Of a stretch of DNA of 64,000 nt, positions 9,812 to 42,550 are shown one piece after another (position 1 is the stretch's first letter; every line of letters starts with the position of its first letter). The notes below the pieces were generated by a model, which saw only the letters and a list, made by a program, of their open reading frames with translations, was not told the origin of the DNA and made no database searches. The stretch comes from a virus: the IMG/VR virus record IMGVR_UViG_3300037516_001127, positions 33,544-97,543 of that record, one strand, 5' to 3'. Position numbers and translations under genes: made by a program.

Positions 9812-9823
9812 AAGGACTAAACA

Positions 9824-10396: not shown

Positions 10397-10400
10397 AACC

Positions 10401-10923: not shown

Positions 10924-10947
10924 TTGTCCTCCGTAGATAGTTGGCAG

Positions 10948-10976
10948 ACCATACCACCCCCTGATATACCTGTCAA
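10948..10976 (-). promoter_or_regulatory. Sigma-A-type promoter
   Basis: TTGACA-17-TATGGT. Confidence 0.6.
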
Positions 10977-11047
10977 CAATCTAAAATGCCAAAAGATTCA
11001 CATGATAGCGACACTGCCGCTTCGCCAATCACGACTATGGTCATAGC

Positions 11048-11353: not shown

Positions 11354-11387
11354 ATTCAACTATCCAACATCAATACAGGAGTTAACC

Positions 11388-15186: not shown

Positions 15187-15549
15187 TTATCTTCTGGTAC
15201 CTTTAGAACGACGAGTAGCCATTTCATCAGATGGCACCCGCTTAGAGATACGATCACCTACAGAATCAGAAACCTCCGGCCCGCCAGGACCCTCAGCCAT
15301 ATACTCCCCAGGAGACCCAGATACATACTTCTGATAATCCCTAAAAAGCTCCTTAGACTTATCACTCCTACTGTAATAATTTAAAGCCGCCAAATATATG
15401 TCCCTCTTCTCCTCAAAATTTTCAGAATCAGAAGAAAAAACCTCAGCCAAACCCAAAATATGAGAACGCTTAAAAGCAGAACCAATGTTAATAAACTTAA
15501 CCAGGATGCTCATCTTTTCTACGTCTGTAAATTCGCTCATGCTTCCCAC
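15187..15549 (-). CDS. Small hypothetical protein coupled to the 1332-aa gene
   Basis: Overlaps the stop of 15537..19535. Confidence 0.7.
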   Translation of the reverse strand: MGSMSEFTDVEKMSILVKFINIGSAFKRSHILGLAEVFSSDSENFEEKRDIYLAALNYYSRSDKSKELFRDYQKYVSGSPGEYMAEGPGGPEVSDSVGDRISKRVPSDEMATRRSKGTRR

Positions 15550-18500
15550 CTAGCCCGAGTAGTCAAATCTCTTGGGTCTCTAGCAACATTTCCTTCATAC
15601 TTAAAAGTTCCTCCAGCGTAACCACCAAAATTTTCATTCCTCATTTGCTGGCTTCGCTCACCAGCCGTCATCGTAGAATTAATCTCAGAAAATTCAAGAA
15701 CAGCTAGATACTCACCTAACCCAGGCGCAGAAAGATGAGAATGCCGTAAACTTTCACTCTTATTGATAAGGAACTCGACAAGAGCAGCCTGAGCGTCATT
15801 CAAAATAATCGAGTCAATACCAGCCCTATAATCTTGCAGCTTATCCGTCATGGCCGTCGCTAAATTCCGATAATAGTCATCATTTTGTGGCCGGAACCCG
15901 ACGCGAGCCCACACATAAGTACCATCGGAGATAGGTGTCACATTAGTGCCTACAAAACCTGCAGCGTTAGCCCACATAAATGTGTGAGGATTAAAAACTG
16001 TTTGAAATCCAGAATTTCTGGCTTCACTAGCAAATACGGTATGGATGCCAGCATCAGCCCCCATATACATATATGAGTTGTTTGTTGTAGCGCCCCCGAT
16101 GCTAGGACGGCTATAAATACTTCTGGAGAAGTGTCCAACCTTTTCCCAGTCTTGTGTATCTTCATTGAATTTAAAAATATTTCCATAAAAATTGAGTGGG
16201 ACACTACTCTCACTTCGATCTAAAACGGTTTTAAATAATGACCCATCTCTAGTCCTAATAGGAATACTTCCGTCTTCGACGCTATGCCCCCAAACGCTTT
16301 GCGCCCATCTCCACATAGCGTCTTCAGCAGCCCGATCGCCAGTACCCCTTGCCGCATCATACATCTGATAAAAATCGTCAATATTTTGAGGATTATGATC
16401 GGCATCCAACCAGGGTGCATCAGTCTGACCATAACGCTCGACAACATGATTAGCTAAAACATTTATACGGGCGTCGCGAACCCTGTTAATTATAAACTCT
16501 GCTTTTTCTTCAATAGTAACCAATTGTTCATAAGCGTTATGGACATCAAGATGTGTTGATATGGCCGCATCAATTTGTCTTGTTCGCTCAATGACATCAA
16601 ATCCTTCAAGATCTTGCTCATTCAAATATTCGACTCTGGCAATACCAAGTTCAGAAAGATAAGATTCTGATTCTTTGATTAGGTTTGTTGCTTTTTGAAA
16701 AGATTCAAAATCTCCACCATCGTACCGTTCTTCTGCAAACTTATTAAGTTTTTGGATATTTGCAAGTAAGTCTTTTTGGGTTCTATTAAATTCTGTTTCG
16801 TCTTGAATGATCGTGTCTAGACTAGATAGTGAATCTAAAGTTTCAATCAGCTCACCTGGCTTGTCAATAAATTCTTCCCTCCGGTCATCAGATAACTTTT
16901 TGATTTGAACAACCGGGCGCATTAAAAGTGGAGGCGCATCTGGGCGACTCGAAGGCACCTTGTAACTTTCAATATCACGAATAGATTGCCAATTCAGACT
17001 ACGCCAATCACGATGATCGTTTGCTTCATCCATATCCTCACCGCCTATTTCATCAGGAAGAAAAAGGAACTCTAACTGACCTGGCAAGTTATCAACACGA
17101 GCTTTTAATAGATCAAATTCCTCTCGCGAAATATAAGAATCAGGAGCACGACCAAACCTTATATCGTTAAACTTATCTAACATATTTGATCTATCACGAA
17201 AAATAGAATCTCTATCTTTTTTCAAATATCTAAAATAGTAATTCCTGTATTGAGAAATTACGTCATTGTAAAATTCGGTATCATCATCATTTTTTCTTTG
17301 CCTTACTAAACCACTTATGAAGGAACGTAACTCTTTTTCTCTATTACGAAACTCGGCCACCGCCTCTTCGGTAGCATCATCAGCAACTTGTTGCTGAGCA
17401 AGATCCATGTAAATTGTCAAAGCGCTGCCGTCGGCATTAATCTGTGCTTTTGCGTTTTCTGTAAGCGGATCTGGTGGAGCTATAGCCTTTTCCCAAAGTT
17501 CAACTATTCCATCAAACACCTCTCGGGCACGTTGTTCTCCCGCCAAACTTACACCGTTCTGAGGATCATCACTATTAGTCGCTGTAACCCAGTATTGTAA
17601 AAGGTCATCTAAATTATCGTTTGCAGCTAGAATCCGATCATCGGATAATTCACCTGCTAGTTGCCATGCATCAGTTACCCGGTCGGCTTCATCTAATTTT
17701 TGAGTTAAATCATTTAATAAAATTTCATCGTTAGCATCAAGAAGTAGTCGCTCATCGGATGAAATGTCAGATGAGCGTTGCCTTTCAAATGAAGGTGCTG
17801 TTACCCCATTTTCGGTAAGCACACGATTCCTGCTAAACGCATCCAGAGGCGAGGTTCCATTCCTTATTTGCTCCAGCTCTTGCTGCTGGAGACGGTCAAA
17901 GATGCCCGTAGGTGTAGCATTCTGGGCCATAGCATTTGTCCAAAGTCCAACTATCCGATCATGAATCGCTCTGGCATCTAATTCTCCCGCCAAACTCATA
18001 CCATTAACAGAATCATAACTGTTACTCATTCGAACCCAAGCTTCTAAAAGCTCATCCAAATTAGTCTGTGCAAGTTGAACCTGATCGTCATCCAATGGAT
18101 AACCTGCATCGAACCGCATTTGCCATCTATCAGTTACCCGGATGGCCTCATTTAACCTCGCATTTAAATCATCGCTTGCAATTTCATCATTAATATTAAG
18201 AAGCGCTTGCTCAGGATATGAAGGTTCAATTGTGCGTTGCCTATTAAATGAAGGTGCCGTTACACCATTCCTGATAAGCAAATCTCTCCTAGATTCTTGA
18301 TCCAGTCCTGACGTACCGGCTATTACTTGGCGTAGGTCTTCCGCTTCTTGATCTGTGATTGCCTGAGCGTTCCTATCAGCCCGGTCTATCCAACCGGCTT
18401 CCGCTGCCGCCCTTGCCTGCTCGTTCGCATCCAACTGCTGCTGCCGCAACTCAGCGCCTTGCTGAAGCCGCTCAGCCACTTCCCAGCCACGCCTTACGTC

Positions 18501-19535
18501 ATCCTTAACCAGGTCAAAAGCCATAGCATTCGAATCGTATCGCTCATTCAAATCATCATAAATATCGTTATAAGAATTACTTAAAGTTTCAAGTTCTTCA
18601 TCAGAAAGTGAATCAAAATCAAACTCCTTAAACATGTCATTAAGGTCAGCTGATAACTTTTCCATTTCATCTAAACGGTCCTGAAAGCCTCTTGTGTTAA
18701 CATCCCAAAAGGTTTCAAAATCGACGACTGGTCTGATAACCGTATTCCTAGATACTGCCAGGACAGCAGCCCTTGCCAAATCATCCGCATTCAAAGATTG
18801 CCTTCGATCAGAAAGCAACCTTTGAGCCCTATCAGAAACAGCAGACAGCTCCTCCTGAGCATCAACAAACGCCTCACTCGGAGAATCCTCCACCACAGGC
18901 TTATTAGCCACAGATAACTCATCCCGAACAGTCGCCTCACGCACCCGAGAAGGAGTCCTCGGAGTTTTCTGACGCGCAACATCAACCGAAACAGCACGCT
19001 CATCCGCCCGAGAAGGAAGCTCATCCTCACCCGAATCACCCTCAACAACATCACCTAAACGTTCCAAACCCCTAGCCACAGCATCACGGGCACGCCCAAC
19101 AATACCAGGAGTAGCAGGCCGCTCCTGATTCGTCCCCTCCTGAACAAGATTATCGGCATCAGCATCAACAGCGTTCGGATCATACGCAGCCACCCGAGCA
19201 TTCCGAGTTCGCCCTATAGCCCCCACAGGATTGTCAGGCTTACTACGCCTACGGCTACGACCAATACGCTCACCAGTACCACGATTAAAACGCCTACCCA
19301 AAATCTTAGTATCATCAACATCAAACTCAGCGACAAGACGACGCGTAACAGCAGAACCATACTCCCGACCAAAATCATTCGTCAACTGCCCGCCACCACT
19401 CCCAGGAGGGCACCGAAACCCTTCTAAACTTGAATCCCAAACAGCATCAAAAGACTTCGCCGCAAAAGCATAAGACGCCAAACGTTGATCATAAACAAAC
19501 GCACCAACACGGGCATCTACGACTGCTCTTTTCAC
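15537..19535 (-). CDS. Large putative virion-packaged protein: shared motif, internal repeat, C-terminal GNAT-like domain
   Basis: YDPNAVDADADNLVQEGTNQERP; RCPPGSGGGQLT; EARNSGF...DGTYVWARVGF. Confidence 0.7.
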   Translation of the reverse strand: MKRAVVDARVGAFVYDQRLASYAFAAKSFDAVWDSSLEGFRCPPGSGGGQLTNDFGREYGSAVTRRLVAEFDVDDTKILGRRFNRGTGERIGRSRRRSKPDNPVGAIGRTRNARVAAYDPNAVDADADNLVQEGTNQERPATPGIVGRARDAVARGLERLGDVVEGDSGEDELPSRADERAVSVDVARQKTPRTPSRVREATVRDELSVANKPVVEDSPSEAFVDAQEELSAVSDRAQRLLSDRRQSLNADDLARAAVLAVSRNTVIRPVVDFETFWDVNTRGFQDRLDEMEKLSADLNDMFKEFDFDSLSDEELETLSNSYNDIYDDLNERYDSNAMAFDLVKDDVRRGWEVAERLQQGAELRQQQLDANEQARAAAEAGWIDRADRNAQAITDQEAEDLRQVIAGTSGLDQESRRDLLIRNGVTAPSFNRQRTIEPSYPEQALLNINDEIASDDLNARLNEAIRVTDRWQMRFDAGYPLDDDQVQLAQTNLDELLEAWVRMSNSYDSVNGMSLAGELDARAIHDRIVGLWTNAMAQNATPTGIFDRLQQQELEQIRNGTSPLDAFSRNRVLTENGVTAPSFERQRSSDISSDERLLLDANDEILLNDLTQKLDEADRVTDAWQLAGELSDDRILAANDNLDDLLQYWVTATNSDDPQNGVSLAGEQRAREVFDGIVELWEKAIAPPDPLTENAKAQINADGSALTIYMDLAQQQVADDATEEAVAEFRNREKELRSFISGLVRQRKNDDDTEFYNDVISQYRNYYFRYLKKDRDSIFRDRSNMLDKFNDIRFGRAPDSYISREEFDLLKARVDNLPGQLEFLFLPDEIGGEDMDEANDHRDWRSLNWQSIRDIESYKVPSSRPDAPPLLMRPVVQIKKLSDDRREEFIDKPGELIETLDSLSSLDTIIQDETEFNRTQKDLLANIQKLNKFAEERYDGGDFESFQKATNLIKESESYLSELGIARVEYLNEQDLEGFDVIERTRQIDAAISTHLDVHNAYEQLVTIEEKAEFIINRVRDARINVLANHVVERYGQTDAPWLDADHNPQNIDDFYQMYDAARGTGDRAAEDAMWRWAQSVWGHSVEDGSIPIRTRDGSLFKTVLDRSESSVPLNFYGNIFKFNEDTQDWEKVGHFSRSIYSRPSIGGATTNNSYMYMGADAGIHTVFASEARNSGFQTVFNPHTFMWANAAGFVGTNVTPISDGTYVWARVGFRPQNDDYYRNLATAMTDKLQDYRAGIDSIILNDAQAALVEFLINKSESLRHSHLSAPGLGEYLAVLEFSEINSTMTAGERSQQMRNENFGGYAGGTFKYEGNVARDPRDLTTRARWEA

Positions 19536-19798
19536 GGTTCAAAAATCCCAACTTTGATTAAGCCTTTAACTTCGTCAGCTACTTCGTCCTCAAAGATTTC
19601 GTAAAGCTCTTTATTTGAGTAACCCCAGCCGGAACCGATGAGCGGCTCAAGTTTCTTAATATTTTTGATGTAAATACGTTTCGCCCATTCGGTTGCTTCT
19701 TGTTCATAAGCTGGATCGCAGTAAACTTCGACGCCTTTGTCATTTTCGACAAATGCGTACATGAGTGTCTTGTTGTAAATAATTTTTCCAATTCTCAT
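19532..19798 (-). CDS. Small hypothetical protein
   Basis: AGGAG RBS, GTGA overlap with the next gene. Confidence 0.75.
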   Translation of the reverse strand: MRIGKIIYNKTLMYAFVENDKGVEVYCDPAYEQEATEWAKRIYIKNIKKLEPLIGSGWGYSNKELYEIFEDEVADEVKGLIKVGIFEP

Positions 19799-19837
19799 CT
19801 TTTTCTCCTATTTAAAATATTTGTGAAACCTAAAAAA

Positions 19838-22800
19838 TCAGACTGCACCATTTGGAATAATTGATTCCAGAATAGAATCAGGATCTGTATCCAAAATCCA
19901 TTGTATACGATCAGCGGTAGTGCTTACCGATTCGCTCGCCGTAAAGTCGGCACCTGCACCATACATGATTTCAGCTATAGCAGCGCTCACCTCTTTAGCA
20001 GAATCTGCGTCGCGTAGACGACCCTGCGCCCGCTGAATAGCACTTATGAGCTCTGCTCTGGTTTCAACCCAGTTGTCACGACCGGGTCCACTACGTTTAT
20101 AAATTTCCAAAACAAGATAATTAGTTCTTCTACTGCCACCCTCGGCGCTATGACTCCATTCGCTAAGAGTAGTCCATTGGGGATCGTGGGGGTTAAACCC
20201 TGCCCCAAATCCCATTCCGTGATCAATTGGGATCAGGCTAACTCTACCTTCAGCATCCCGTGTGCTCATGATGTTAGCTATGTGTCGGTCGTCGTTAAGG
20301 ATTGTCCAGTCTAGCAGAGTCATTGATATTAGGTCATCTGCCCCAATATCGGTTGGTTGTCCTGCTATACCCATAGAGACATCGTCACCAAAACTGTTTT
20401 GAGCTAATTCGATAACGATTGGCCTGGCAACAGAACCAGTATTACCTACCCCATATTCGCGATGAATAATGGGCACGCCATCAATGGGTGCTTGTTCGAC
20501 AGGCCGGGGGGCACCCCATCTGAATGAGCTTGTAGCGAACCCAAATCTTTCAGCAATATGTGCTCCGAGCATTTCAGAAAAATCTTCACGAATGCCAGTA
20601 GAGACACTATTTCCGTATTTGATGGCGATACGTTGTTTTGTTTCACGGTCATAGAACATTTGTATGCCGTTAGCGCCTTGATCCGAACCGCCGATTGGGA
20701 GGAATCTTTCGCTCATAGGGTTATCAGCAATAAAGTCGATTAGTTCTTGTTTGTCCTCTTCCCATACCCTGACTTGATCAGGGCGAGTAGGTTTACGGTC
20801 ACCCCTCTCCGTAACTATCATTGCATCTAGATCTGATTTAGCTAGAATGGTTTCAGCATCAGAAGCATCCAATTGATCTACATATGTTTGAATATCTTCC
20901 GGGTCAACATACGTTGAATACCTTGGCAGTTCTAAAGACTCAACGTCAACACTATTATCAACAATTGAGTTGGCAAGAAGATCATCAGGGACCTCAGACA
21001 AAGCGCCACCACCCGAAACATGATCCTTAGCTTCGGCAGCATTATGGATACCAGGTTCGCCCTCAGCAGGTGTCGCTACCTCGCCTGGCAAGTGGAAACC
21101 GGCAGCGTCAACGCCACCGAGTTTAGCGTCCAACCCGTCATCAACTTTTTGGGCTAAACCTGTAGCCGCTTCACGGGCTTTAGAAGTAGATGCGGTAGAT
21201 GGGTCAGAAATACCTTCTGGTTTAGGTGGATACATTTCGTTGCGTGTACGAACGTTACGCTCTTCAAGCCTCTGGATGTGGTCCATGAGAGCTTCGGCTG
21301 CAGGTACGTTATTACGCTCCATCAGTTCCGATGCTTGAACCCAGAGTTCCCGAGCGTATTGTTCGCTATCAAAAATGCTTATAGGGCTTTTACCGTCAAC
21401 TATTGTGTCAACACTAGTTTTGATGCTTTGAACTAGTTGTTCTTGCTGCTCGGCTTCAGCTTTGGCTTGGGCTTCTCGTTCGTTAACGTCTCGTGCTAGT
21501 CGGCTAGAGGTATCTACACGATCAGCGATATCCGAAGTGACATTTCTAGGTGTGGGATCGACCGCATCTGGGGTCGTCGGAGCAGGAACTACGTCTGGCA
21601 CAGCAGCTTGCGCTTTTTCTATATCGTCTAGTTTCTGCTGCTCATCTTTAAGGCCAGCGTCAATAAGCTTGTCTATCATTTGACCCACCCGCATCTGGTC
21701 ACGTTGCAGGTAAGTGTTTCCAGGTTTGCGGTATGCCCTAAGTTTCTCTAAGAGCTCTTTATAAGATTCGCCACCTACCGCAGGATCGCTGATAGCTGCA
21801 TCAATTTCTTGTGTGAGGCTTTCGAATCCTTCGTTGTCAAATTCTGGTGTGCTAGGTGTTTCTGGTGGCCTTGGTGGTACCGTCCGGCCTTCTGCCTCTA
21901 TTGGCGGTACTTCTGGTGCAGGTCCAAGAGATGGGGGTGTTTCGATAGGCTGGTATTGGTCTATTACTTCTGAGGGTTGGATTGCCTCGGGTGCCGCTTG
22001 TGGTTGTCCTGGGGGGTTGGCAAATGCTTCCCAGTCTGGTGGAGCGTATTGGCGTGGGGTTTCAGTGGCGGCAGGGGTTTCTTGTGGTGACGCAGCAGGA
22101 GTTGAATCACCCCAGATATCGTCTTCAATTTTGAGCGGTTGAGGGATGTAGGTGGCTTCAGGGGTTTCAGTTTTTGGTTGCTCGGGTTCAGGTTTAGGTT
22201 CAATCCTAGGTTCAGGTTTAGGCTTCTCGGGCTTTACTTTTCTGCCTATCTCAAACCCTTTATTTACTTCAGGATCTCTATCTGAACGGGTTGATAAAGC
22301 TCTTTTTAAACTCTGATCAAACTCTGGATTCTCCCTAAAAAAATTGGCTAGGTCTTCCTCTGTAGTAGTGCCATCAAGTAGGCCTGCTCCGAGACGGTCA
22401 TATTCTTTTGCCCAATCAGTATCATAAGAAATTACACCCGTCTCATCGCTATTGACTTTAGGATTGCCATTAGCGTCAACCGAACGGAAAAGTGCTCCTG
22501 GAAGATTGGTATCATTGATACCTTCAGCTAGTTCGGCTCCAATCTCCTCACCTCCCAGGAACTCAGCTAAACGCTGCTCGCGAGTTAAACCGAGTTCAGG
22601 ATCTCGGCCCTCTGCGCCTCTAACATGTCCTGCTATTCTGCTTATAGCTTCAGAACGTTCATCAGGAGTCAAATCATAATTATCTACTTCGTATTCGACC
22701 GCACCAGCTTGTTGATCCAGTGGCAAAATTTGTGCAGCATTTACAGTTTGTAGTTTCTGAAATTCCTCTTCAGGTATATCAACATAACGTACTCTTCGAA

Positions 22801-25495: not shown

Positions 25496-25497
25496 AA

Positions 25498-25677
25498 CTA
25501 ACCCTCATCAACAGAATCAGAACCCAAAGTAGCTGGCATATCCAGAATAGCCTGAATCTCAAGCTGAACCTTAGGGTCCTCCAGAATAGCCTGCTGAGAA
25601 TAACGATGAGGAATCATAGAAAGCTTCGCAACACGTTCCCAATTCGTATTTTTATTCAAACCTGAAAACGAAGTCAC
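25498..25677 (-). CDS. Small hypothetical protein (59 aa, not in ORF track)
   Basis: GTG 25677 after AAAGG; MTSFSGLNKNTNWERVAKLSMIPHRY...GSDSVDEG; fills the gap almost exactly. Confidence 0.7.
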   Translation of the reverse strand: MTSFSGLNKNTNWERVAKLSMIPHRYSQQAILEDPKVQLEIQAILDMPATLGSDSVDEG

Positions 25678-25687
25678 AAATCAACCT

Positions 25688-28207: not shown

Positions 28208-28209
28208 AA

Positions 28210-31200
28210 CTATGAACGCTGCCTTTCATACAAAACGTTATCATCGCCATCGCCGATCACAAGAACTTCATATTCACTTATACACCCAAAGCCAAGCATT
28301 GACAAAGAAAAAAGTCTTGATCGAGGCACGTCCATATGGAAAGTGTGTTCACCAAAAGCTTGTTGGGTAATCGTGGCAAACGAAGATAAACCATTCCATT
28401 GGGCTATAGCATCTACAGCCCAACCCTTCCCAACCGAAGCATCCAAAGCCCACGAGATATCACCATCAGTCGAATCAAGCGATCTTAAAATAACCATCAA
28501 ATCGCCCACTTCATTTCTAGCACTATCATGTGCTGTCTGAGCCGACCTGTATCTTTCCAAAAGCAACGTTTGAGCAGGGCTTAAAAATTCACCAGCCCGT
28601 GCAGCTCTGACAGTCTCCGCCCATAGAGGATTAGCATAAATTTTTTCTAATTCATCACCAAGCAACTCTTTGTTCTGCTCAGTCAAATTAAGCTCATCGA
28701 CAGTTGCAGTTCTTTTTTTCTCAATTTCCATTTGTAACTTTTCAGCTCGTGGAGTATCAGCAATTCTGTCTGGTCCTACAGTCATTGCACGACTAAGCCG
28801 AACTATTCCATCTTCAGTTATTCCCATATTTTCTAAATGGTTTTGAGTCGTCGAATAAATTGCTTTAGCTAAAATCTGGTAATCATTAGCAACTTGTTCA
28901 AGATCTTCAACTTTTCCTCCTGGAAGAAACCTAGAAGCACCACGAGGAGGAGTCCTAAAAGCAGAAAAATCTTTTCCAGCACCTCGTGAACCAACCAGTT
29001 TTGCGACAGCCACAGACATCATCCAGGCTTTCCCGGTATCCGAACCAACTGCCCATTTAGAATTCAACTCATCAAAAATAAAAACGGCTTTAGCTCTGTC
29101 GGAAATAGAATCACTAACAATGCCACGGGTTTTAATTTCTACCATAAAAGCATTAAGAAAATCATAATGTTCTACGTCTTTAGAAACCCCAACACTGGAA
29201 TCTATAAACGGGTTTGAAAACGGATCTTCTAACGGATCTACAAGCAGAAAGCCCTCTTGAAACCTATTTACAGATCGAACAAACTCATATGGACTCTCAT
29301 TATCAAAAATCCTATATAAAGCGTCTCTAACAGAAGGATCAGATTCGATCATAGCTAGTAGCGTTTCAGCCGAAGACAATGCTGAAATTTGCTTACTAAG
29401 AGCACTTCCAACCTCACTAAGAACAATAGGCTTATACGATCCGTCATCATTCTTAGGCCTGTCAGGAGCATACAAAATGGAAGATATAAAAGCTTCTTTT
29501 ATATCTTCACGACTAAAATCTTGTGGCAAAGAACTTACATACGATTCAGCTTCATCTCTAGCAATCTGACGTTCCGCCGCATGATCGGCCTCAAGCTGAT
29601 CTCTCCGCTTACGCACATTTTTTAGAAGGTCGCCTAATTTCTTAGAAAGCTCATCACTCCCATTATTAACAGAATCTATTTGCGCCGAAATCTCTTGCAT
29701 TTTTTGCATATCAAAATCGCGATCAGCCTCCCTTCGGGCTTTCAATAAAGATTGCTGTTCATCATATAAAGCATATAGGGCGTCAGATAACTCTAAAGCC
29801 TCTTTATCACCAGCTAATGGCCCATCATCAGGCGTACTCCTATCAGGAATCTGAGATTCCCAATCAGGATTTTCTGCTGCCCGTGCATCAAAATTTCTAA
29901 CAAACTCAGGAATAGGATTATCCTGTTCCCATTTTCTGACAATTTCTTCCACCTTAGCTTGTATTATAATTCTTTCCATCTCAGCACTTGAAGAACCTTC
30001 AAAATTTGGGACTACAAAATCTAAGACAGTAGATAACGTTTCCCTATGCTGAGAATCACTCATTGGGCCATCAACCTTGCTACCCCATGTAGACATATCT
30101 GAAGGATCAAACTCGTCCTCATCAATACCGGGGTCAAGAGTGTTAAGAACTTGAAAGATCTCATGAATGCCAGCAGAACCATTATGAAAATCAGCTTCTT
30201 GGTCCTCAAAAACATCTTTTGGAACAGAGTACAAAGGGTCAACTTTAAGAATTTCGTCAAAAATAGTATCAGGAAGAACAGCCGTAGGATTATTATCTGC
30301 ATCAGGAATATCAAAAATTTTAGACTTTCCAACAAGCATAGAAACACCACTAGCATCAATATCCCTATCAAAAATGATACGAGCGGCAGCAGCTACCGTA
30401 GCGTCATCGTAATTAACTAAAAGTTTGTGCATAGGGTTATAATCAGCCGGGTAGGCGTCCATCTTGTCGACTTTGCCTTCAAGTTCCTGAATAGCTTTTA
30501 CTAAATCAGAGACTTCTTTAGAAACAGGTTCGGGTGGCTCGATAACCGAAACAGCAGGAGGAACCCAGTTTTCAATCTCAGCAATAATCTCAGGGTTATC
30601 AGCTACAAGTATTTCACCCTGCACAGTCCCAAACCGGCCAAGAACCAGTTCATTAGGTACATCTCGCCTAGCCCATCTTGAACCCCACTCGTCGCTGTCC
30701 TTCTCCACAACAGACCAGGAAGTGATTCCTGCATCTTCAGCTTCATATCCTGATTCGTTGCTAGACCCATATCCGAGCCCAGACTGATTTGGTTCGGTTC
30801 CTGTTTCGCTAATTAAATCACCAGAGCGGTACAAGCGAATAGCCGCATATTCGTCTCCGGCGACTTCATCAACATAGCGGCGACGAACTAGTTGCAAAAA
30901 TCGCATAACGTCAGGATCACGTTCCGATTCTGGCGCTTTTAAAGTAACTGAGATAAGCTGGCGCGCACGCATAGCATACTGCCAAGCCCCAAAATTATCT
31001 TCAGTATCACGAAAGTCTTCGTTATCATCAACAATTGACGGATTTGCTTCAAATAAGGCTTGCAGGCTTAGGTATATGTCTCGCTGTGTTGCATTTGCCG
31101 ATTCTTCTGCTGAGCCGAACCACAGCTCTGGCTTCACCAGATAGGCACCCTTATACGCTACGTTTCTTATTAAAGCCCGCTCTTCCGGTGAACCATCAGC

Positions 31201-33459
31201 GAAAATGTCACCTCCCACTCGGCGGTCCCACTCAGAGAGAATTTCCCAAGGCTCTAAATCGGAGAAACTAGCTCGGATTGTGTCTTCTCCAAAAACGCCT
31301 TCGGGAAGGTCCGTATCAACAAACCTGCTCGAAGGATCATTATAAGTATCCAATATCTGCCGAGCAGGACGCAGGCTAGAGAACCCGTCACGAGGAGAAA
31401 GCCGCTCCGAAATCCGCTCCGAAACCAAACTCCCAACACCAGGCTCAGAAACCTTATCCCCATCAAAACTAGAAACCTCAGACACCCGAGGCCTATCAAC
31501 AACTCTCCGCATAAAATCAACAAGCGCCTGCCCAGAATCGGAAAGCCCCTCAGTATCAGCATCCAACATCACAGCAGTAAAAGTCTCAGCAAAAGACTCC
31601 AACTTATTCGTAATAGAATATTGTGATATTTGCTGATTTTTAGGAATATTCAACTGCGTTACAGCATCAATAATCCGTTCAGCTTCCGCTTCCTCAGACT
31701 CGTCAAAGTAACCAGATTTTTTAGCACGATCTAGCGCTAACCGCATATCCTTTACGTTTAACCAGGTCGATTCTGGATCACCAAGCATTACAGATTGCCA
31801 GTCGTCTTCAAGTTGGCTTAACTCCTCCCAACTTTCATCTTGATAGTTATCCCATATATCTTGAAGGGCTTGCATTTCGGAGTAATAGTCAGCTACTAAC
31901 CGATCCCATTCTCTGCTAAGGTCAGTAACCGAAACCATCGGCGTAACATTGTTATTAATGACTTCGTGGAACGCGTGTCCCATCTCATGGACGACAGTAG
32001 CGACATGGTCATCTGGGCCACCTTTAATAAGGAATTCGCCTGTGACCCTTTCGGTCGCATTCGGTTCTGACCTCAGAATATAGGCACCAGTTTTTGGTTC
32101 AAAGTCATCGACAACCCCAAAGGTAACAACACCTTCGTAATATTGCCCAGCGACACCACCCGCCCAGTGAGAACCAGCGTGTGACGCTAAAACCACTAGA
32201 GGAATAGGATTGTCATACTTCTCAAAAAGTTGTGCGATTGGAGAATCAGGACCAAACTCGCTTTCAAAAACACTTTGCAGGCTCTCGGCAAGAGCAATTC
32301 CTTCTGGGGATGATAACGCTGCTACTGCGTTTTCATGACCAAACATTTCCCGATGCCGGTCTTCCCAAAAGGTATCTAAATCTTCATCCGTTTCTAAATC
32401 AGCATTAGGAGCAAGTATATCTTTTGATTCTCTTTCCTCATAAGCTCGTAGAAATTCATAAAAATTAGAAGGATCACCATGAATGGCTTGTTCAAGAAGC
32501 AAATCATCAGAATCCTTATATTGAGAATCTATATAATCACTAATATCTTTTAGATCTAATCTACCGGAATCTGATATAGGAGGATTTGAAACTACATCTT
32601 GCCAGGGGATATCTGGATCTAAATCATCAGAAAAAACTATTTCATCAACCCCTCTCGAACCATACCTTTCGAAAGCTGATTGCAATGCTAAACCTTTGAA
32701 ATAATCTACTGCCCAATCAGGTTCATCAACCTTTAACAGATTATACAGAAGCTCTTCAAATTCTCTATCAGGTAACTCATCAAAATGTGACTGCTGCAAA
32801 AGCAATCGATCTCTCATAACTTGCAATCTGCCCATTGCTGCCTCACGAGGCGAAACAGCAAGCCTGGAACGATCCCAAATCTCTTCATCTTCAGCTAACG
32901 CAGCAGCAATAGTTTCTAAACTTTCACGCGCCAATTCAATGTCTTGCCTAGTTTCCCAGTCTTCATTACCAAATCTAAATTTGGCGTTGAGTTGATCAAG
33001 CCTAGCTTGTATCTCTAATGCGGCAGCTTTGGCTTCCTCTTGCGCCTTTGCGTTATCCTCTTCTTCTACTCTAAGAATTTCATCGAAGTCGGGTTTAGCA
33101 GATCCCTTTTTACGCTTAGCAGGCTTTTTAGGCTTTTTAACTAAAGAAACAAGCTCACGGGCAGGACTATTGTCATCAAGTGGGTTACCCGACAGCACAC
33201 TCCCAGGGACTTCGAGCTTTGGCTTGGCAGGCCGCTCGTGAATTGTCCCATCCTGAATCAACCCATCAGCATCAGCGTCATCAACCACACGGTAAACGGC
33301 AGGACGTAAAACCCTTTTTAAAGGATTCCTACCCCCAGCATTACCGCCACGCCGCCTACCAATACGACTACCTCGAAGACCCCTACCCAAAATTTTTGAT
33401 TCAATATCAACAAACAACTCGTCGACAGTTACGTCATCAATGTCAGTACGTTCAAACAT
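28210..33459 (-). CDS. Polyvalent protein (~1749 aa): shared motif, zincin metallopeptidase, two ART-like domains
   Basis: Start re-called at ATG 33459; DDADADGLIQDGTIHERP; VVHEMGH...ISQYS..ESFAE; IRLYRS..ITSWS..GEILV; VRLSRA..LSSFAT..EYEVLV. Confidence 0.72.
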   Translation of the reverse strand: MFERTDIDDVTVDELFVDIESKILGRGLRGSRIGRRRGGNAGGRNPLKRVLRPAVYRVVDDADADGLIQDGTIHERPAKPKLEVPGSVLSGNPLDDNSPARELVSLVKKPKKPAKRKKGSAKPDFDEILRVEEEDNAKAQEEAKAAALEIQARLDQLNAKFRFGNEDWETRQDIELARESLETIAAALAEDEEIWDRSRLAVSPREAAMGRLQVMRDRLLLQQSHFDELPDREFEELLYNLLKVDEPDWAVDYFKGLALQSAFERYGSRGVDEIVFSDDLDPDIPWQDVVSNPPISDSGRLDLKDISDYIDSQYKDSDDLLLEQAIHGDPSNFYEFLRAYEERESKDILAPNADLETDEDLDTFWEDRHREMFGHENAVAALSSPEGIALAESLQSVFESEFGPDSPIAQLFEKYDNPIPLVVLASHAGSHWAGGVAGQYYEGVVTFGVVDDFEPKTGAYILRSEPNATERVTGEFLIKGGPDDHVATVVHEMGHAFHEVINNNVTPMVSVTDLSREWDRLVADYYSEMQALQDIWDNYQDESWEELSQLEDDWQSVMLGDPESTWLNVKDMRLALDRAKKSGYFDESEEAEAERIIDAVTQLNIPKNQQISQYSITNKLESFAETFTAVMLDADTEGLSDSGQALVDFMRRVVDRPRVSEVSSFDGDKVSEPGVGSLVSERISERLSPRDGFSSLRPARQILDTYNDPSSRFVDTDLPEGVFGEDTIRASFSDLEPWEILSEWDRRVGGDIFADGSPEERALIRNVAYKGAYLVKPELWFGSAEESANATQRDIYLSLQALFEANPSIVDDNEDFRDTEDNFGAWQYAMRARQLISVTLKAPESERDPDVMRFLQLVRRRYVDEVAGDEYAAIRLYRSGDLISETGTEPNQSGLGYGSSNESGYEAEDAGITSWSVVEKDSDEWGSRWARRDVPNELVLGRFGTVQGEILVADNPEIIAEIENWVPPAVSVIEPPEPVSKEVSDLVKAIQELEGKVDKMDAYPADYNPMHKLLVNYDDATVAAAARIIFDRDIDASGVSMLVGKSKIFDIPDADNNPTAVLPDTIFDEILKVDPLYSVPKDVFEDQEADFHNGSAGIHEIFQVLNTLDPGIDEDEFDPSDMSTWGSKVDGPMSDSQHRETLSTVLDFVVPNFEGSSSAEMERIIIQAKVEEIVRKWEQDNPIPEFVRNFDARAAENPDWESQIPDRSTPDDGPLAGDKEALELSDALYALYDEQQSLLKARREADRDFDMQKMQEISAQIDSVNNGSDELSKKLGDLLKNVRKRRDQLEADHAAERQIARDEAESYVSSLPQDFSREDIKEAFISSILYAPDRPKNDDGSYKPIVLSEVGSALSKQISALSSAETLLAMIESDPSVRDALYRIFDNESPYEFVRSVNRFQEGFLLVDPLEDPFSNPFIDSSVGVSKDVEHYDFLNAFMVEIKTRGIVSDSISDRAKAVFIFDELNSKWAVGSDTGKAWMMSVAVAKLVGSRGAGKDFSAFRTPPRGASRFLPGGKVEDLEQVANDYQILAKAIYSTTQNHLENMGITEDGIVRLSRAMTVGPDRIADTPRAEKLQMEIEKKRTATVDELNLTEQNKELLGDELEKIYANPLWAETVRAARAGEFLSPAQTLLLERYRSAQTAHDSARNEVGDLMVILRSLDSTDGDISWALDASVGKGWAVDAIAQWNGLSSFATITQQAFGEHTFHMDVPRSRLFSLSMLGFGCISEYEVLVIGDGDDNVLYERQRS

Positions 33460-33772
33460 CAGAAACACCTTCAGCCCGAGGCTTGACAACAGCTTTATCC
33501 ATAGGCGGATTCATACTTGACAACAAAGAAACAATTTTCTCATCAGCAACATTCTCAAAAACAAAAAACTCTGTAACACTCTGAGAAGAAGGCTGATTAT
33601 GATAAACAGCATCTTTTGGAATATCAAAAAGCTTACTCGAATAGCTAAATGCTTGACCATCCAAATACTCTTCATAGGTACCTGGCTCACGACAAATATA
33701 GGCATGAAAAATGCCCAACTCGGGATGCTTGTAAAAATAAACAATAGGGTAAACAGGTCGTTCAGCAGCCAT
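33452..33772 (-). CDS. Small hypothetical protein
   Basis: Starts 2 nt after the upstream kinase stop, overlaps the next start. Confidence 0.72.
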   Translation of the reverse strand: MAAERPVYPIVYFYKHPELGIFHAYICREPGTYEEYLDGQAFSYSSKLFDIPKDAVYHNQPSSQSVTEFFVFENVADEKIVSLLSSMNPPMDKAVVKPRAEGVSDV

Positions 33773-33774
33773 AA

Positions 33775-35640
33775 CTAGCCCACAATCTCTCGTCGTAACT
33801 GCCGCAAAACTTCGCTTGGCCTATCCTTCAAAGCTTGTAATCTTGCCTCGGCGACTATCCGAACAGCTTCAAGATGCTGCAACTCTTCAGAAGTCAAAAT
33901 TTTTCCTTTAGATGAAATCCGATCAACAGAAAGAATCATATCTAAACTTGTTTCAAGACGCTCAATAGCGTTCTCAACTGCAGCATTAAATTTTCGGGAG
34001 CGTACAGCATCATTCAAAAGATTCAAATTTCTATATTCAAAAGGACGACGCACGGCACTTCTTGCATAATCCTTATATGAAACAGGGGTTACTCTTTCTC
34101 TTTCGGCAAGCTGACCCACAAGCCTTATACCTAGAGTACCCACGACCGGATTTGACCCCCCATACAACAAGCCGTTATCAATCAAACCTAGTCTTAAACG
34201 CCCATCCTCATCTGTTCGAGCCATAAAATTATGCAAATGCCGATCCGTGTTATCAAATATGTAATCCATAACTAGCATTCGAGCCAGATCCCCAGGATCA
34301 ACTTTTTTAGATTTTGCTCCACTTCCGTTTATAGCCCATTCTTCCCATTTGCCAGCAGCGCGACTCGAAGGCTTATGGTCAAATTCCCAATCATCAATTG
34401 ACCTCATCATCATCCAGCGGTACGGCCTAGCAGAACCAGCCCGGTCGACACTTTGACCAACTCTAAAATTGTTTTCACGGTTGCCAAAACCTAAAACCTC
34501 AGAAGCCTTATTGCCAATATTTTCAAGTAAAGCATCATTATTGCCATAACTAGAAACTTTCACATACCAGACATCGTTATTCACCGAGTCAACAACTCTA
34601 AGTACCCGCCAAGGCTTTACACTTGAAAGGTTTCTTTCATCTTTAATTACTTCAAAATTGAATCTCCGATTTTTAAATTTAGTCTTATTACGCATAAGCC
34701 CATTTGGGCCTTCAGCCATAACTAAACTTTCTTTTGTCAACGGAACACCAGAAGGAGTTGCAAGTTCTAAATTTTCGTCAAATAAAACATCAATAATATG
34801 CTCATCGGCAACATCAGTTATATCCCCACCTTTTTCATAAACATGCTTAAGGCCCTTTTGATAATCTTGAATTCCCCATTTCTTAGCCCGTCGCGTTTTC
34901 GGTGCGCCACCTGGATCGATACGCCCGGCAAGCCTCTCTAAAGCTGAAGCAAAGAACTGGCGGCGAGGAGCGTCAGGAACCTGCACAGCAGATGGACCTG
35001 ACCACGAAGAAGGGGGAGGAGGGACATTAACAACAGCCTGCGAAGCACGAGGAGCAGGAGCGCCACGAGCAGCACGCACAGCAGGACTGCTACCACTAGG
35101 AACATCAACAGCATTAGCTATACGGTCAAGTATCCCCTGACGCCTAACAGGCTTCGCAGCACGCCTCTCACGCAGAGCTGCAACCAGGCGGCTAGGACCA
35201 ACAGGACGCTCCCACCGAGTGCCTTCCTGACGCCTCAGATCGCTATCACCATCTCGGGAGTTCGGATCATACCGAACAGGCCTACGCCTAGCCTTGCCAA
35301 ACCCCAAAACCTTGTCTTCAAATCCGTTTAAACGAAAATCAATTGAAGAAACAATTTTCTCGTTATAAAAATCTGACTTACTATCAACAGACCCCTGTTG
35401 ATAACTAAGTTTTTGGAAATCAGCCCACACCGAATCATCCAACGGTTCAGGCCCAGTAACAACCAACGAAGGGTTACTAATCGCCGACTTGATACCCTCT
35501 AAAGACGCAGGTTCCGACTCCGACCAAACAGCAAAATCTTTTAACGTACCAGAACCCGCTGCCAAAATATCAAAAGCATGTTCAATCACAATAGCCTTTG
35601 AACCAGAAAATGGATCAACAATAGTAATAGCATTAGTCAT
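33775..35640 (-). CDS. Putative virion-packaged protein: shared motif plus HipA/PI3K-like kinase
   Basis: YDPNSRDGDSDLRRQEGTRWERP; WYVK..ENIGNKASEVLG; VMDYIFDNTDRHLHNF; LIDNG. Confidence 0.78.
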   Translation of the reverse strand: MTNAITIVDPFSGSKAIVIEHAFDILAAGSGTLKDFAVWSESEPASLEGIKSAISNPSLVVTGPEPLDDSVWADFQKLSYQQGSVDSKSDFYNEKIVSSIDFRLNGFEDKVLGFGKARRRPVRYDPNSRDGDSDLRRQEGTRWERPVGPSRLVAALRERRAAKPVRRQGILDRIANAVDVPSGSSPAVRAARGAPAPRASQAVVNVPPPPSSWSGPSAVQVPDAPRRQFFASALERLAGRIDPGGAPKTRRAKKWGIQDYQKGLKHVYEKGGDITDVADEHIIDVLFDENLELATPSGVPLTKESLVMAEGPNGLMRNKTKFKNRRFNFEVIKDERNLSSVKPWRVLRVVDSVNNDVWYVKVSSYGNNDALLENIGNKASEVLGFGNRENNFRVGQSVDRAGSARPYRWMMMRSIDDWEFDHKPSSRAAGKWEEWAINGSGAKSKKVDPGDLARMLVMDYIFDNTDRHLHNFMARTDEDGRLRLGLIDNGLLYGGSNPVVGTLGIRLVGQLAERERVTPVSYKDYARSAVRRPFEYRNLNLLNDAVRSRKFNAAVENAIERLETSLDMILSVDRISSKGKILTSEELQHLEAVRIVAEARLQALKDRPSEVLRQLRREIVG

Positions 35641-36605
35641 TCGACACCCACAATATTGCCAGTTTTAATAAGTCGAGTTTCTAAAAACTCTAACATTTTA
35701 GCCTCATCCATCACTAAGCCCAACGTAATCAAAGAAGCATTTTCATCAGATTCTAAAACGTTTAACCGCTGGTTGTATGTAGCCCGAATCGTTTTAAAAT
35801 AAGCTTTTTCCGGATCAGACATGACCCCGTCAAGCCCATAACCCTGCTGATACTCATCCCAGTCAAAACCTTTTGCACGTTCCAATAAAGCTTTATACAA
35901 AGACAGAAGAGACTTACGTTGAGTTTGAGAAAGGCCCGTAAACCGGGTTTTAAACCCTTCCCAGGTTAGGTACCCCTCCCCTAGCACGAGACTACCTCTG
36001 TCTTTCAATTCGTCACTAGGCAATCCGGCACCTAAGGCGTACTGGTCAGGCACAACAAAAAGGTTTATTTTTTTGCCGTTCATAACAGGTACCAACGATG
36101 ATGGATTTCTCCGTCTTTGATCAAGTAGGTAATCAGAAATTGCTAATCGCAAAAACTGGTCATCATCAACGTCATGCAACCTAAGACGCTTTGATCGAAC
36201 AATCCGAGGCATCGACTCGGGTGTAGAAAACAGCACCTTGCGAGAAGAACCAGAATCCAGATACCTAACTTTACAAAGAGGTAGCCCAAGCCACTCCCGA
36301 ATGTCGGAAGATACCTTTATCGACAAACCGCCTAATTCACTGTTAGGACTTAAGCGATAATAAGATTCATTTTTACGTCCAGATAAAAGATCTGCCCCAG
36401 TTCCCAAACTGGTAATCTCAAAAGCGTCAGACAACCGAATAGCATCATTAAGAAACTTATCGGGAATCGGATCTATTGAACCGCCATCTAAAAGAAACGT
36501 TACGGCTTGCTTAACGTCTTGAATTTTATCAGGGATTGGCAAATCCGAGACTTCCGTAAAAAAGATTGGATTTATAGCGTTTTCGGCGTTAGGCCCAGTC
36601 CGCAT
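35637..36605 (-). CDS. Degenerate (pseudo)kinase paralog
   Basis: Same pre-kinase motif (LLDGGSIDPIPDKFL); ISDYLLDQRRRN replaces D..DRH. Confidence 0.55.
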   Translation of the reverse strand: MRTGPNAENAINPIFFTEVSDLPIPDKIQDVKQAVTFLLDGGSIDPIPDKFLNDAIRLSDAFEITSLGTGADLLSGRKNESYYRLSPNSELGGLSIKVSSDIREWLGLPLCKVRYLDSGSSRKVLFSTPESMPRIVRSKRLRLHDVDDDQFLRLAISDYLLDQRRRNPSSLVPVMNGKKINLFVVPDQYALGAGLPSDELKDRGSLVLGEGYLTWEGFKTRFTGLSQTQRKSLLSLYKALLERAKGFDWDEYQQGYGLDGVMSDPEKAYFKTIRATYNQRLNVLESDENASLITLGLVMDEAKMLEFLETRLIKTGNIVGVE

Positions 36606-36608
36606 TTT

Positions 36609-37733
36609 TCACGACTCGTTGATTTCAGTTTCCACTTCGATAACTTCAAATTCCATCAAAGAAGCCAAAAACTCGGGATCATCACTAGCCTTGATTTCAA
36701 CCTCTGGGGCAGCCTTTGATTCAAGCTCTGCCTCAGCTGCCGCATCTACGATCTCACCATCAGTAGCCACAATAACAGTGTGATCTTCGCCGTCATCAGT
36801 TTTGATCTCAACCATATAAACTTCACGATTATCAACTGCACCAGAAGTAATCTCAGTGACCTTGCCGCCAACAGACTTAACAGCAATATCTGCTGCAGCA
36901 TCAAACCCGACAACAACAACTGGTGCGACCTCAGCCGACTTCTCATTCATAGGACCGACATTGAGACGCTTCCAAGAAACACATTCGGCGGTATCTCCCT
37001 CATAAATCACCTCGACGATACGACCGTCCTTCTGCATGACGTCAACCAAAAACATGTCAGCAGTATCTGAATAACCAGAATCGAGAACCTTAACGCCAGC
37101 ATGCTCTTCCAAAGCCAAACCTTCAACCTCAACCAGGTTAGGCAAATTGCCCTCGGGGGCACAACCGCCGACACACCCAGCGCAAGGGGTTGAGCCGCCA
37201 GTCAGAACCTTCTTCTGAAGGCCACAGATGTACGCAGCGTCATCTTCAACGCCTTCAGCGGTCTTCATGCCACCCATCATCGCAAGACGACGAGCACGAG
37301 CATCACGGCGGCGCTTCATAGCTGCCTCAGGGTCCTCGGCTACAACACTTTCATCAACCTCAGAAATGTCACCTGGGTCGCTCTCATCAGAAGTAACCGT
37401 AGCCGCAGGATCTTCCATGTCCGCAAGGTTCTCACCACGCTTACGACCAGGATTTGCCACAGCCGAACGGGCAGGAATTTCGGTAGCAGGAACTTCATCC
37501 TTGCCGGGGATAGCGCTCATGGTCATAGCGCCCTTTTCATCGACCTCTTCCATGAGAGTCTCTTCTTCTTCTTCAGGAGAATTTTCGTCATCAACAGACT
37601 TTGCTTGCACAGACATGGCCCCACATTTACCGCAGACCTTGCCACCCTTGTATCCACAATCAGCGGCATCACCCATAGGGCAGGAAGTCACACTTCCATC
37701 TGCGCCAGTTTCTACAATTGCTTTTTCATCCAT
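36609..37733 (-). CDS. Acidic Cys-cluster protein with C-terminal PepSY-like repeats (scaffold-position gene)
   Basis: Start re-called at ATG 37733 after AAGGAG; CGKCG, CAGCVGGC; FDAAADIAVKSVGGKVTEI..VYMVEIKTDDG..VATDGEIV. Confidence 0.6.
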   Translation of the reverse strand: MDEKAIVETGADGSVTSCPMGDAADCGYKGGKVCGKCGAMSVQAKSVDDENSPEEEEETLMEEVDEKGAMTMSAIPGKDEVPATEIPARSAVANPGRKRGENLADMEDPAATVTSDESDPGDISEVDESVVAEDPEAAMKRRRDARARRLAMMGGMKTAEGVEDDAAYICGLQKKVLTGGSTPCAGCVGGCAPEGNLPNLVEVEGLALEEHAGVKVLDSGYSDTADMFLVDVMQKDGRIVEVIYEGDTAECVSWKRLNVGPMNEKSAEVAPVVVVGFDAAADIAVKSVGGKVTEITSGAVDNREVYMVEIKTDDGEDHTVIVATDGEIVDAAAEAELESKAAPEVEIKASDDPEFLASLMEFEVIEVETEINES

Positions 37734-37808
37734 TTTAATCATTCTCCTTGTATTCACTTAAAGTTTTGACGTACCCAGGGTGGGCCTATATTACACGGAC
37801 ATCAGACC

Positions 37809-42327: not shown

Positions 42328-42328
42328 A

Positions 42329-42550
42329 CTACTCACTCCCCAACAGGTAGCCATACAGACCAGAAACTAAACCGAAAGTTACAAATCCTGCAGGAAAGTA
42401 AATCAGCCCAGCTCCTAGCGATGTAAAAATAACAAAAAAAAGCATGAAAATGTAAGCAACCATTTCTCGTGGTTCCAAATCCGAATCTCGAAAAATCAAC
42501 TTTTTGTTGACCTTAGAAACTTTATCGTCTTTATCGTCTTCACCTGGCAC
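42329..42550 (-). CDS. Small two-TM membrane protein preceding portal
   Basis: Hydrophobic hairpin; ends 1 nt before the portal ATG. Confidence 0.65.
   Translation of the reverse strand: MPGEDDKDDKVSKVNKKLIFRDSDLEPREMVAYIFMLFFVIFTSLGAGLIYFPAGFVTFGLVSGLYGYLLGSE

Follow-up and report, generated by a model that had tools for sequence, protein, structure and literature searches.

A polymorphic array of leader-tagged proteins, probably head cargo, between the protease and capsid genes of an uncultured actinobacterial myovirus

The locus described here lies in a 64,000-nucleotide stretch of viral DNA (the window), which comprises bases 33544-97543 of a 97.5-kb phage contig with 47% G+C (IMG/VR record IMGVR_UViG_3300037516_001127). 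The phage is an uncultured, WhiB-encoding myovirus of actinobacteria, and in its head operon an array of ~22 kb separates the head protease from the capsid gene. The order on the minus strand is portal-MuF, S78 protease, g382, g322, g621, g106, g1759, g839, g1885, g1332, g120 and the major capsid protein (MCP); the succession of protease, array and capsid put forward in the original prediction, made from the sequence alone, is thus borne out by Pfam matches and open reading frame (ORF) calls. The core of the array is formed by five large proteins of 621-1885 amino acids, each with a short leader motif, TAG1, and a sixth tagged protein (g744) is encoded downstream of the MCP gene. The features are the following:

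39994..42354, minus strand: portal protein with C-terminal MuF domain, 786 amino acids, with a Pro/Gly/Ala-rich linker, (PGA/PVPGA)n
37809..39896, minus strand: g695, prohead protease polyprotein, Peptidase_S78 at E=2.6e-12 (Pfam)
36609..37757, minus strand: g382, untagged and acidic, with two cysteine clusters, conserved directly after the protease
35637..36605, minus strand: g322, stand-alone kinase-fold domain without tag, found with an iterated kinase hidden Markov model (HMM)
33775..35640, minus strand: g621, TAG1, basic/Pro-rich linker and PI3/4K-like kinase
28210..33489, minus strand: g1759, TAG1, helical region, HExxH domain and an orphan part of ~1050 residues
25688..28207, minus strand: g839, TAG1, helical linker and PI3/4K-like kinase
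19838..25495, minus strand: g1885, Gly-rich N-terminus, TAG1, linker, middle region and PI3/4K-like kinase
15537..19535, minus strand: g1332, TAG2 (a second leader), TAG1, helical repeats and GNAT-like domain
15187..15549, minus strand: g120, small and untagged, just upstream of the MCP gene and present only in the closest relatives
13715..15043, minus strand: HK97-fold MCP, Pfam Phage_capsid at E=4.9e-40 over residues 164-437
6444..8678, minus strand: g744, TAG1, helical region and GNAT-like domain

TAG1 is a motif of ~35 residues, [FY]DPNAxDxDxDGxVQEGTxxERP, identified as one copy each in g621, g1759, g839, g1885, g1332 and g744 (HMM E-values of 1e-11 to 1e-16) and in no other protein of the 97.5-kb genome. 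In the five large proteins, all of which had been expected to share an N-terminal signature, it is found within residues 59-160: 116-149 of g621 (window 35194-35295, 53 bits), 59-91 of g1759 (33217-33315, 41 bits), 125-160 of g839 (27728-27835, 44.5 bits), 69-102 of g1885 (25190-25291, 49 bits) and 109-143 of g1332 (19107-19211, 57.6 bits). In g744 it occupies residues 34-66 (8481-8579, 54.9 bits). A chance origin of this sharing was considered and is ruled out by the E-values together with the 74 to 0 positional split described below. The D-x-D-x-D-G-x-V-Q-E core, where D20, D22, D24 and Q28 are at least 90% conserved, resembles Excalibur and EF-type calcium loops, and from this likeness calcium-dependent docking is a reasonable guess. 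The Pfam Excalibur model matched none of the window proteins.

Two further leaders were identified, and both have the same part as TAG1. TAG2 (RCPxG..GGQxT..FG, also written RCPxG..GGxFTD..C) is present in g1332, 40 residues upstream of TAG1 (residues 36-68, window 19332-19430, 35.9 bits). The third, found in relatives (L071:1062-9350, the merged contig L118/L066, P0166 and others), consists of DUF3721 (LGCxGAHxxxDGxWxPC) followed by W.xLGxRGxxGIDTLxGGGLVS, and often stands just before TAG1. Pfam has no model for TAG1 or TAG2, and DUF3721 is listed only as a domain of unknown function. In one relative a 377-residue protein encoded directly upstream of the capsid gene contains two DUF3721 copies.

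A TAG1 profile made from 60 copies and run against 1.84 billion representatives matched at least 1017 representative clusters at E<=1e-3 and 509 at E<=1e-10, every match being a metagenomic 'hypothetical protein'. The first copy begins no more than 60 residues from the N-terminus in 88 of 150 representatives, and 56 of the 150 contain two to four copies. The domains behind TAG1 include Zeta toxin, DUF3626, DUF3721, DUF7178, ADPrib_exo_Tox, ART-PolyVal, NUDIX, RNase_T and GmrSD_C, as well as helix-turn-helix (HTH), sigma-70 region 4, PG_binding_1, pentapeptide repeats, GNAT, PI3/4 kinase and S78. The HMMs of TAG1, TAG2, the kinase and the GNAT-like domain did not match Gordonia phage DalanDe or Brevibacterium phage Cantare.

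The first group of payload domains is formed by the kinases of g621 (residues 238-616, window 33793-34929), g839 (444-825, window 25733-26878) and g1885 (1465-1880, window 19856-21103). Pfam PI3_PI4_kinase matches g621 at E=7.6e-6 and g1885 at E=6.7e-4, and g1885 is 30% identical to g839 over 492 amino acids. The profile A2, comprising 37 kinase-like domains of the window and its relatives (g621 among them), matches the catalytic and activation loops of PI4K-beta at E=1.8e-6 and also CtkA, Fam20 and PI3K. An AlphaFold2 model of the g839 kinase, with a predicted local distance difference test (pLDDT) of 76.8 and a predicted template modelling score of 0.80, matches CtkA (Foldseek E=8e-6, probability 1.0), PI4KIIa, PI3K and HipA. 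In the alignment all three proteins retain the Lys, the Glu, DRHxxN and IDxG and on these motifs look functional; the three HipA/PI3K-like kinases proposed earlier are upheld. In g1885 TAG1 is followed by ~700 residues of Pro/Glu-rich and repeated basic segments. Residues ~400-900 of this protein (window 22800-24300, minus strand) contain Pro/Glu/Thr-rich stretches and basic units, KPKET..QKRNRE..ERI...L......EEN..PL.EG, with a copy number different from that of the closest relative.

The untagged g322 had been described as a kinase paralogue of 322 amino acids. The kinase fold stands, but the catalytic motifs are lost, with K replaced by R, DRHxxN by RRNPSS and IDHG by VPDQ in the alignment, and the protein is a predicted pseudokinase. 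A g322-like domain is also the C-terminus of TAG2-bearing proteins of ~680 amino acids in 32 related loci.

The second group comprises the GNAT-like domains of g1332 (residues 1006-1324, window 15564-16520), where ~850 internally repeated, helical residues make up the middle of the protein, and of g744 (residues 500-744, window 6447-7181), where Acetyltransf_10 was matched at E=0.0045, under Pfam's cut-off. A third copy is present in g437, encoded on the terminase-side operon:

47676..48989, plus strand: g437, GNAT-like paralogue with an Excalibur-type DGDGDGRCEE loop

An iterated search started from any one of the three C-termini finds the other two, which places them in a single superfamily; g437 and g744 are 28% identical over 116 amino acids, and phrog_2859 is matched at the N-terminus of g437. 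The profile of this superfamily (A4) matches the GNAT structure 2q0y over acetyl-CoA motif A at E=0.0017. In the AlphaFold2 model (pLDDT 87.5) the 40-odd top Foldseek matches are all acetyltransferases, albeit weak ones (E 0.009-0.08, template modelling score ~0.25), and the domains are read as divergent GNATs, which agrees with the GNAT announced for the array. Two members outside the array had also been announced, and only g744 qualifies. The other, g437, is not counted: it shows only the DGDGDGRCEE loop, and its score on the TAG1 model is not significant (8 bits, with HMM scores of 8-10 bits overall).

The array had also been credited with a zincin and with up to three domains like ADP-ribosyltransferases (ARTs). 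In g1759, the last of the large proteins, a HEMGH motif of the HExxH type is indeed present at residues 501-505 (window 31975-31989), and with relaxed Pfam thresholds Peptidase_M3 was matched below threshold over 33 residues (E=0.011), so the zincin identity of the domain is weakly suggested. The ARTs were not confirmed. The DRAT match is sub-threshold in the same relaxed search (E=0.095), and a language-model look-up (Atlas) placed g1759 nearest to ATLF (anthrax-lethal-factor-like) and ADPrib_exo_Tox clusters at 0.86, below the reliability bar of the tool; two Atlas look-ups were negative or sub-threshold for an ART. A PDB sequence search gave no match, and an ART profile built from tagged proteins did not match g1759 with hmmsearch or hhalign. 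By eye, LYRSG...TSWS...QGEILV can be seen at residues 880-970 and SSFAT...SEYEV near the C-terminus. Two homologue searches detected no homologue of residues 700-1759.

The slot between protease and capsid is shared by the relatives of this phage. IMG/VR contains 428 MCP relatives; the best 80 of these 428 were kept, with identities of 68% or more. Wherever a relative has enough sequence, the 10 kb upstream of the capsid gene are filled by large ORFs, up to 3224 amino acids, most of them without BLAST similarity to the window proteins, and where both genes are on one contig the distance from protease to capsid is 16-29 kb. The protease, its P344 module, g382 and the g322-like domain are kept across relatives and the remainder varies. 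Among 161 partial loci, TAG1 was identified in 57, TAG2 in 86 and either of them in 101. In protease-anchored loci all 74 tagged ORFs are at or downstream of the protease, and neither its upstream side nor the other strand has any. For loci anchored on the MCP gene the counts are 61 upstream, 11 downstream and a single ORF on the opposite strand. Within the protease-MCP interval 130 of the 224 ORFs of at least 400 amino acids are tagged, against 10 of 148 outside. The conserved loader with variable payload that had been envisaged is recovered in this form: the tag is kept over hundreds of related contigs and at least 1017 clusters and the payloads are swapped.

TAG1 is also found in the same polypeptide as the protease, 450-580 residues in, in 11 of 62 distinct protease ORFs, some of which continue into payloads; the protease ORFs of relatives reach 3222 amino acids. 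In the window the protease is the polyprotein g695, with an S78 protease at residues 1-185, a 2H/LigT-like part at 185-345, the conserved P344 module at 344-530 and a C-terminal module. Its PHROG matches are head maturation protease (E=1.3e-28) and RNA-ligase families over residues 191-344. The P344 module is present in 72 related loci, often as a separate ORF of ~215 amino acids. The 2H/LigT-like phosphoesterase domain (window 38862-39344, minus strand) shows a HITAGY motif, and in DalanDe and Cantare a separate 'RNA ligase' gene adjoins the portal. In DalanDe gp27 (L001 14934-19841) the S78 domain is located at residues 1127-1300 of a 'capsid maturation protease' of 1635 amino acids, and the large proteins of this phage, without TAG1 or TAG2 copies, are encoded between portal and protease, not between protease and capsid.

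The turnover of payloads is best seen in the closest relative (G001), a 128-kb IMG/VR contig with 80-90% identical DNA. One difference is the following block:

27626..31361, minus strand: 3.7-kb block with ~245 nt in its place in G001 (blastn of G001:1-8600 against the window)

The block spans residues ~710-1759 of g1759, the stop and start codons, and residues 1 to ~194 of g839 with its own TAG1. Since G001 lacks it, this relative encodes one chain of 1652 amino acids with a single tag, g1759(3-726)+g839(159-825), where the N-terminal part of g1759 with the HExxH motif is joined to the spacer and kinase of g839. What the window has beyond G001 is an orphan payload of 1050 residues, followed by a stop codon, another start and a further TAG1; every chain that is translated separately thus bears a tag of its own. 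The break point lies a few residues after the new TAG1 of g839. At the DNA level this tag shares 81% identity with the tag of the G001 homologue of g621; tags are therefore copied between genes and mark the boundaries of cassettes. Payloads, which had been expected to differ across relatives, are not invariant: G001 differs by a whole payload-plus-tag cassette, and turnover is observed between phages with 70-100% identical MCPs.

The interval is most likely a polymorphic array of tagged head cargo, that is, the cargo section of the head-assembly operon. We consider it probable that the tags address or dock the chains inside the assembling head, from where the proteins would be delivered with the DNA. 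The best available argument for placing the tagged chains inside the prohead is that the S78 family acts there and that tags are fused to the protease; the fusion, together with the strict protease-to-capsid position, makes this placement plausible. The frequent occurrence of TAG1 at the extreme N-terminus makes an address or a joint more likely than the cut site of a propeptide.

Each large protein comprises a short conserved leader, a disordered or helical spacer and a variable enzyme. In the mechanism that we propose, the leader would dock the chain to the inner side of the assembling prohead, alongside the S78 protease, which could trim or separate the tagged proteins, and these would remain in the capsid with the DNA until they exit via the tail at infection. 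The ejected enzymes might then phosphorylate, acetylate or cleave host proteins ahead of phage gene expression. The tags double as module boundaries, where payload cassettes are gained, lost, fused or split between related phages. A bolder proposal, which we hold only tentatively, is that TAG1, with TAG2 and DUF3721 as alternatives, could be an undescribed and possibly calcium-dependent docking peptide that loads any protein following it into HK97-fold capsids. An abundant lineage of freshwater-type actinophages would then use it to bring into its hosts a quickly changing set of more than 1000 cargo families, among them kinases, acetyltransferases, ARTs, Zeta toxins, sigma/HTH factors and nucleases.

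Several points weigh against packaging and delivery. No cultured phage with TAG1 was found in 50,697 phage records (tblastn), and no cleavage motif of the protease could be defined. Alignment A1 shows no conserved Glu-terminated motif after TAG1. The tag has no sequence relation to any proven capsid-targeting peptide, and Excalibur-type loops are typical of extracellular proteins. Proteins of 1300-1900 amino acids must unfold in order to traverse the tail tube. As to position, 94 of the 224 large ORFs of the interval have no recognised tag, ten tagged ORFs are outside it (mostly just after the MCP gene) and an inverted metabolic cassette stands between g744 and the head genes. Finally, the ARTs of freshwater actinophages have been interpreted as toxins against grazers (PMC6802176).

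The last point belongs to an explanation that we regard as unlikely, in which the array encodes late-expressed effectors or toxins that are not virion proteins and act in the infected cell or after lysis, the tags being calcium-binding or regulatory elements or recombination joints. A position in the late operon alone is no proof of packaging, and the coincidence of tags with cassette boundaries and their copying between genes would suit such joints, as the 'Trojan horse' reading of phage ARTs in freshwater (PMC6802176) would suit toxins; the HDAC-type deacetylase and dual-specificity-type phosphatase of the phage could balance writers acting inside the cell. This explanation does not account for tags that share a chain with the prohead protease, which works inside the prohead, nor for the confinement of tagged ORFs to the protease-to-MCP slot, and PMC5512222 argues for head packaging of proteins with a matching repertoire of payloads.

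It is quite improbable that the proteins are internal structural elements (scaffold, core or inner body) setting head size or organising the DNA, with secondary or degenerate enzyme domains; in that case they would remain in the capsid or be broken down there. For the most part g1332 and g1885 consist of long helical and low-complexity regions, the catalytically dead g322 is the most conserved kinase-fold domain across relatives, and giant phages do build protein bodies in the head (PMC7411985); however, the three kinases retain every catalytic residue, the HTH/sigma, NUDIX, RNase T, Zeta toxin and ART payloads are host-directed, and a turnover of payloads between phages with such similar MCPs is not expected for parts of an architecture. 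That the tag is an extracellular, cell-wall or tail-associated calcium module of proteins decorating the virion exterior or the tail is very improbable, since the prohead protease fusion puts the chains inside the shell, the payloads are overwhelmingly cytoplasm-acting enzymes and DNA-binding domains and the tail genes have other locations, with the sheath at 478-1947 and the large ORFs further along the contig in the downstream direction. In favour of such a module, the DxDxDGxx[C/Q]E pattern is like the extracellular calcium loop of Excalibur, a full Excalibur domain is present in one tagged representative and PG_binding_1 in several small tagged proteins, and 'minor tail protein' and lysin B annotations are found between the portal and protease genes of DalanDe.

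The flanking structural genes deserve a separate description. The portal-MuF protein matches Phage_portal at E=1.7e-51 (residues 73-397) and Phage_Mu_F at E=2.4e-8 (residues 693-780) in Pfam. The MCP has an N-terminal delta domain of ~140-160 residues, and its segment 141-162 is the predicted junction of delta domain and mature protein. A copy of this segment is present in the protease:

38448..38513, minus strand: protease residues 462-483, 22 amino acids, copy of MCP segment 141-162

The stretch is KDLYSASPEGTPDNFGAVERDD in the protease and KDVYSGLPTGTPGAFGTIQRDD in the MCP (window 14558-14623, minus strand), with 59% identity in BLASTP. The MCP segment itself is conserved, but the copy is not found in the P344 modules of more distant relatives; it is private to the sub-lineage and may be a self-cleavage site. 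The idea that the tag is a protease cut site common to the MCP was rejected as a general rule, the P344 modules of the relatives being without the MCP copy. The TAG1 HMM has no significant match in the MCP or the protease, nor is the MCP copy convincingly TAG1-like. The two cysteine clusters of g382 are CPMGDAADCGYKGGKVCGKC and CGLQ..CAGCVGGC; homologues were identified in 61 related loci, in identical position in four relatives, without any Pfam or PHROG match for g382, which may be a candidate scaffold or a zinc-binding core protein.

The remaining landmarks of the genome are these:

478-1947: tail sheath
6018-6374: WhiB
42611-43945, plus strand: large terminase

The MCP shares 47-48% identity with its counterparts in Brevibacterium phage Cantare and the Gordonia Bendigovirus phages, all of them myoviruses of actinobacteria. 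A megablast of the interval against the phage records gave no match, and no cultured phage is close at the DNA level. An actinobacterial host, also foreseen in the original prediction, is supported by WhiB and by these nearest cultured relatives; WhiB, the G+C content of 47% and the sample series suggest freshwater-type actinobacteria. The inverted metabolic cassette that separates the MCP gene from g744 (9050-13655, plus strand) comprises a PhyH-type dioxygenase, a SAM methyltransferase, a class II (B12) ribonucleotide reductase and DUF6197. Other genes encode a PAPS-reductase-like protein (4822-5988, minus strand), a Rad52-type annealase and a PD-(D/E)XK nuclease (44524-46022, plus strand), a ParB-N protein (53007-53792, plus strand) and DUF932 (60002-61024, minus strand). 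Finally, the two genes of an operon at 58458-59902 (minus strand) specify a deacetylase of the HDAC family (Hist_deacetyl E=6e-20) and a phosphatase of the dual-specificity type (DSPc E=2.4e-6, under Pfam's cut-off), which are possible 'erasers' of the marks left by the array kinases and GNATs as 'writers'.

If the tag is a capsid address, effectors that virions deliver could be recognised in uncultured phages by a simple rule on the sequence, and a short peptide would be at hand as a candidate for loading foreign proteins into HK97-type capsids. The list of payloads would predict a rewiring of the host at entry by phosphorylation, acetylation and possibly proteolysis or ADP-ribosylation, and the HDAC-type and dual-specificity-type enzymes suggest marks that are later reversed or counter-balanced. 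Even without packaging, the tags show where the hot spots of cassette exchange lie within a very large, unannotated family of hypothetical proteins.

Encapsulin cargo-loading peptides are short, mostly C-terminal sequences that direct diverse enzymes into a shell of HK97 fold, in a system with no DNA, protease or ejection. TAG1 has a different sequence and the resemblance would be functional only; if the docking-peptide reading is true, the tags would serve the heads of tailed phages much as these peptides serve encapsulins, as a natural and programmable code for loading cargo. The MuF-fused polymorphic toxins of temperate phages, reportedly described by Jamet et al. in 2017, likewise combine a conserved head-associated N-terminal part with a variable C-terminal toxin or enzyme. 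The phage described here differs in that its MuF domain forms the C-terminal part of the portal protein and that what is conserved in the array proteins is a short peptide; Pfam identified no MuF domain in them. MuF fusions are also discussed in PMC5512222.

Precedents for proteins packaged in capsids are T4 Alt with the T4 capsid-targeting sequence (CTS) and the phage polyvalent proteins (PMC5512222; PMC9026906). As in T4 IPI-III and Alt, a short N-terminal peptide is common to unrelated proteins of the head module, co-expression with head genes is combined with a host-modifying enzyme payload, and the module includes a prohead protease, although packaging here is only what we infer. Differences are that TAG1 has no sequence relation to the CTS, measures ~35 residues with a DxDxDG loop and is also internal and multi-copy, and that the protease is of the S78 (HK97 gp4) type, without a cut site like the L/I-x-E of the T4 gp21 system having been found. 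The ejection proteins of giant phages (SPN3US, phiKZ-like) and the Dar proteins of P1, many of them large, are packaged in the head, processed by the prohead protease and ejected, and some counter host defences (PMC7411985, PMC10052503, PMC12810830). They belong to other lineages, with other protease families and cut motifs. To our knowledge they share no tag of the DxDxDG type.

The closest system is that of the polyvalent proteins, which Iyer, Burroughs, Anand, de Souza and Aravind (2017, PMC5512222) argue to be carried in the phage head and to enter the host with the DNA. Their domain pool as given there (kinase, GNAT, ART, metallopeptidase, Zeta toxin, 2H phosphoesterase and assemblin-like protease, with cassette-like variation) is shared with the array, as are the large size, the variability and the encoding with portal, terminase and head genes: the terminase (42611-43945), portal-MuF, S78 protease and MCP flank the array. 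Relatives of this phage also have typical polyvalent chains of 2000-3200 amino acids, where Zeta toxin is combined with pentapeptide repeats and DUF3721, or HTH/sigma with other domains; the protease, too, is fused to a 2H domain. In contrast, the window system is made mostly of separate one-enzyme genes, each with its own TAG1/TAG2 leader; one recognisable enzyme was identified per protein, g1759 possibly having more although only HExxH was seen. The kinases here are PI3/4K/CtkA-like, whereas those of PMC5512222 are a truncated clade of Ser/Thr/Tyr kinases; the protease is N-terminal in the fused chains of the relatives, the assemblin-like peptidase C-terminal in that paper; and the slot is protease-to-capsid, not MuF-linked. 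The novelty of the array is lessened by the fact that the general idea of capsid-packaged polyvalent effectors has already been published. Apparently new here are the leader tags: the searched passages of PMC5512222 mention no shared leader, the word 'calcium' is absent from the text of that paper, and Pfam describes TAG1 and TAG2 by no model and DUF3721 by no function.

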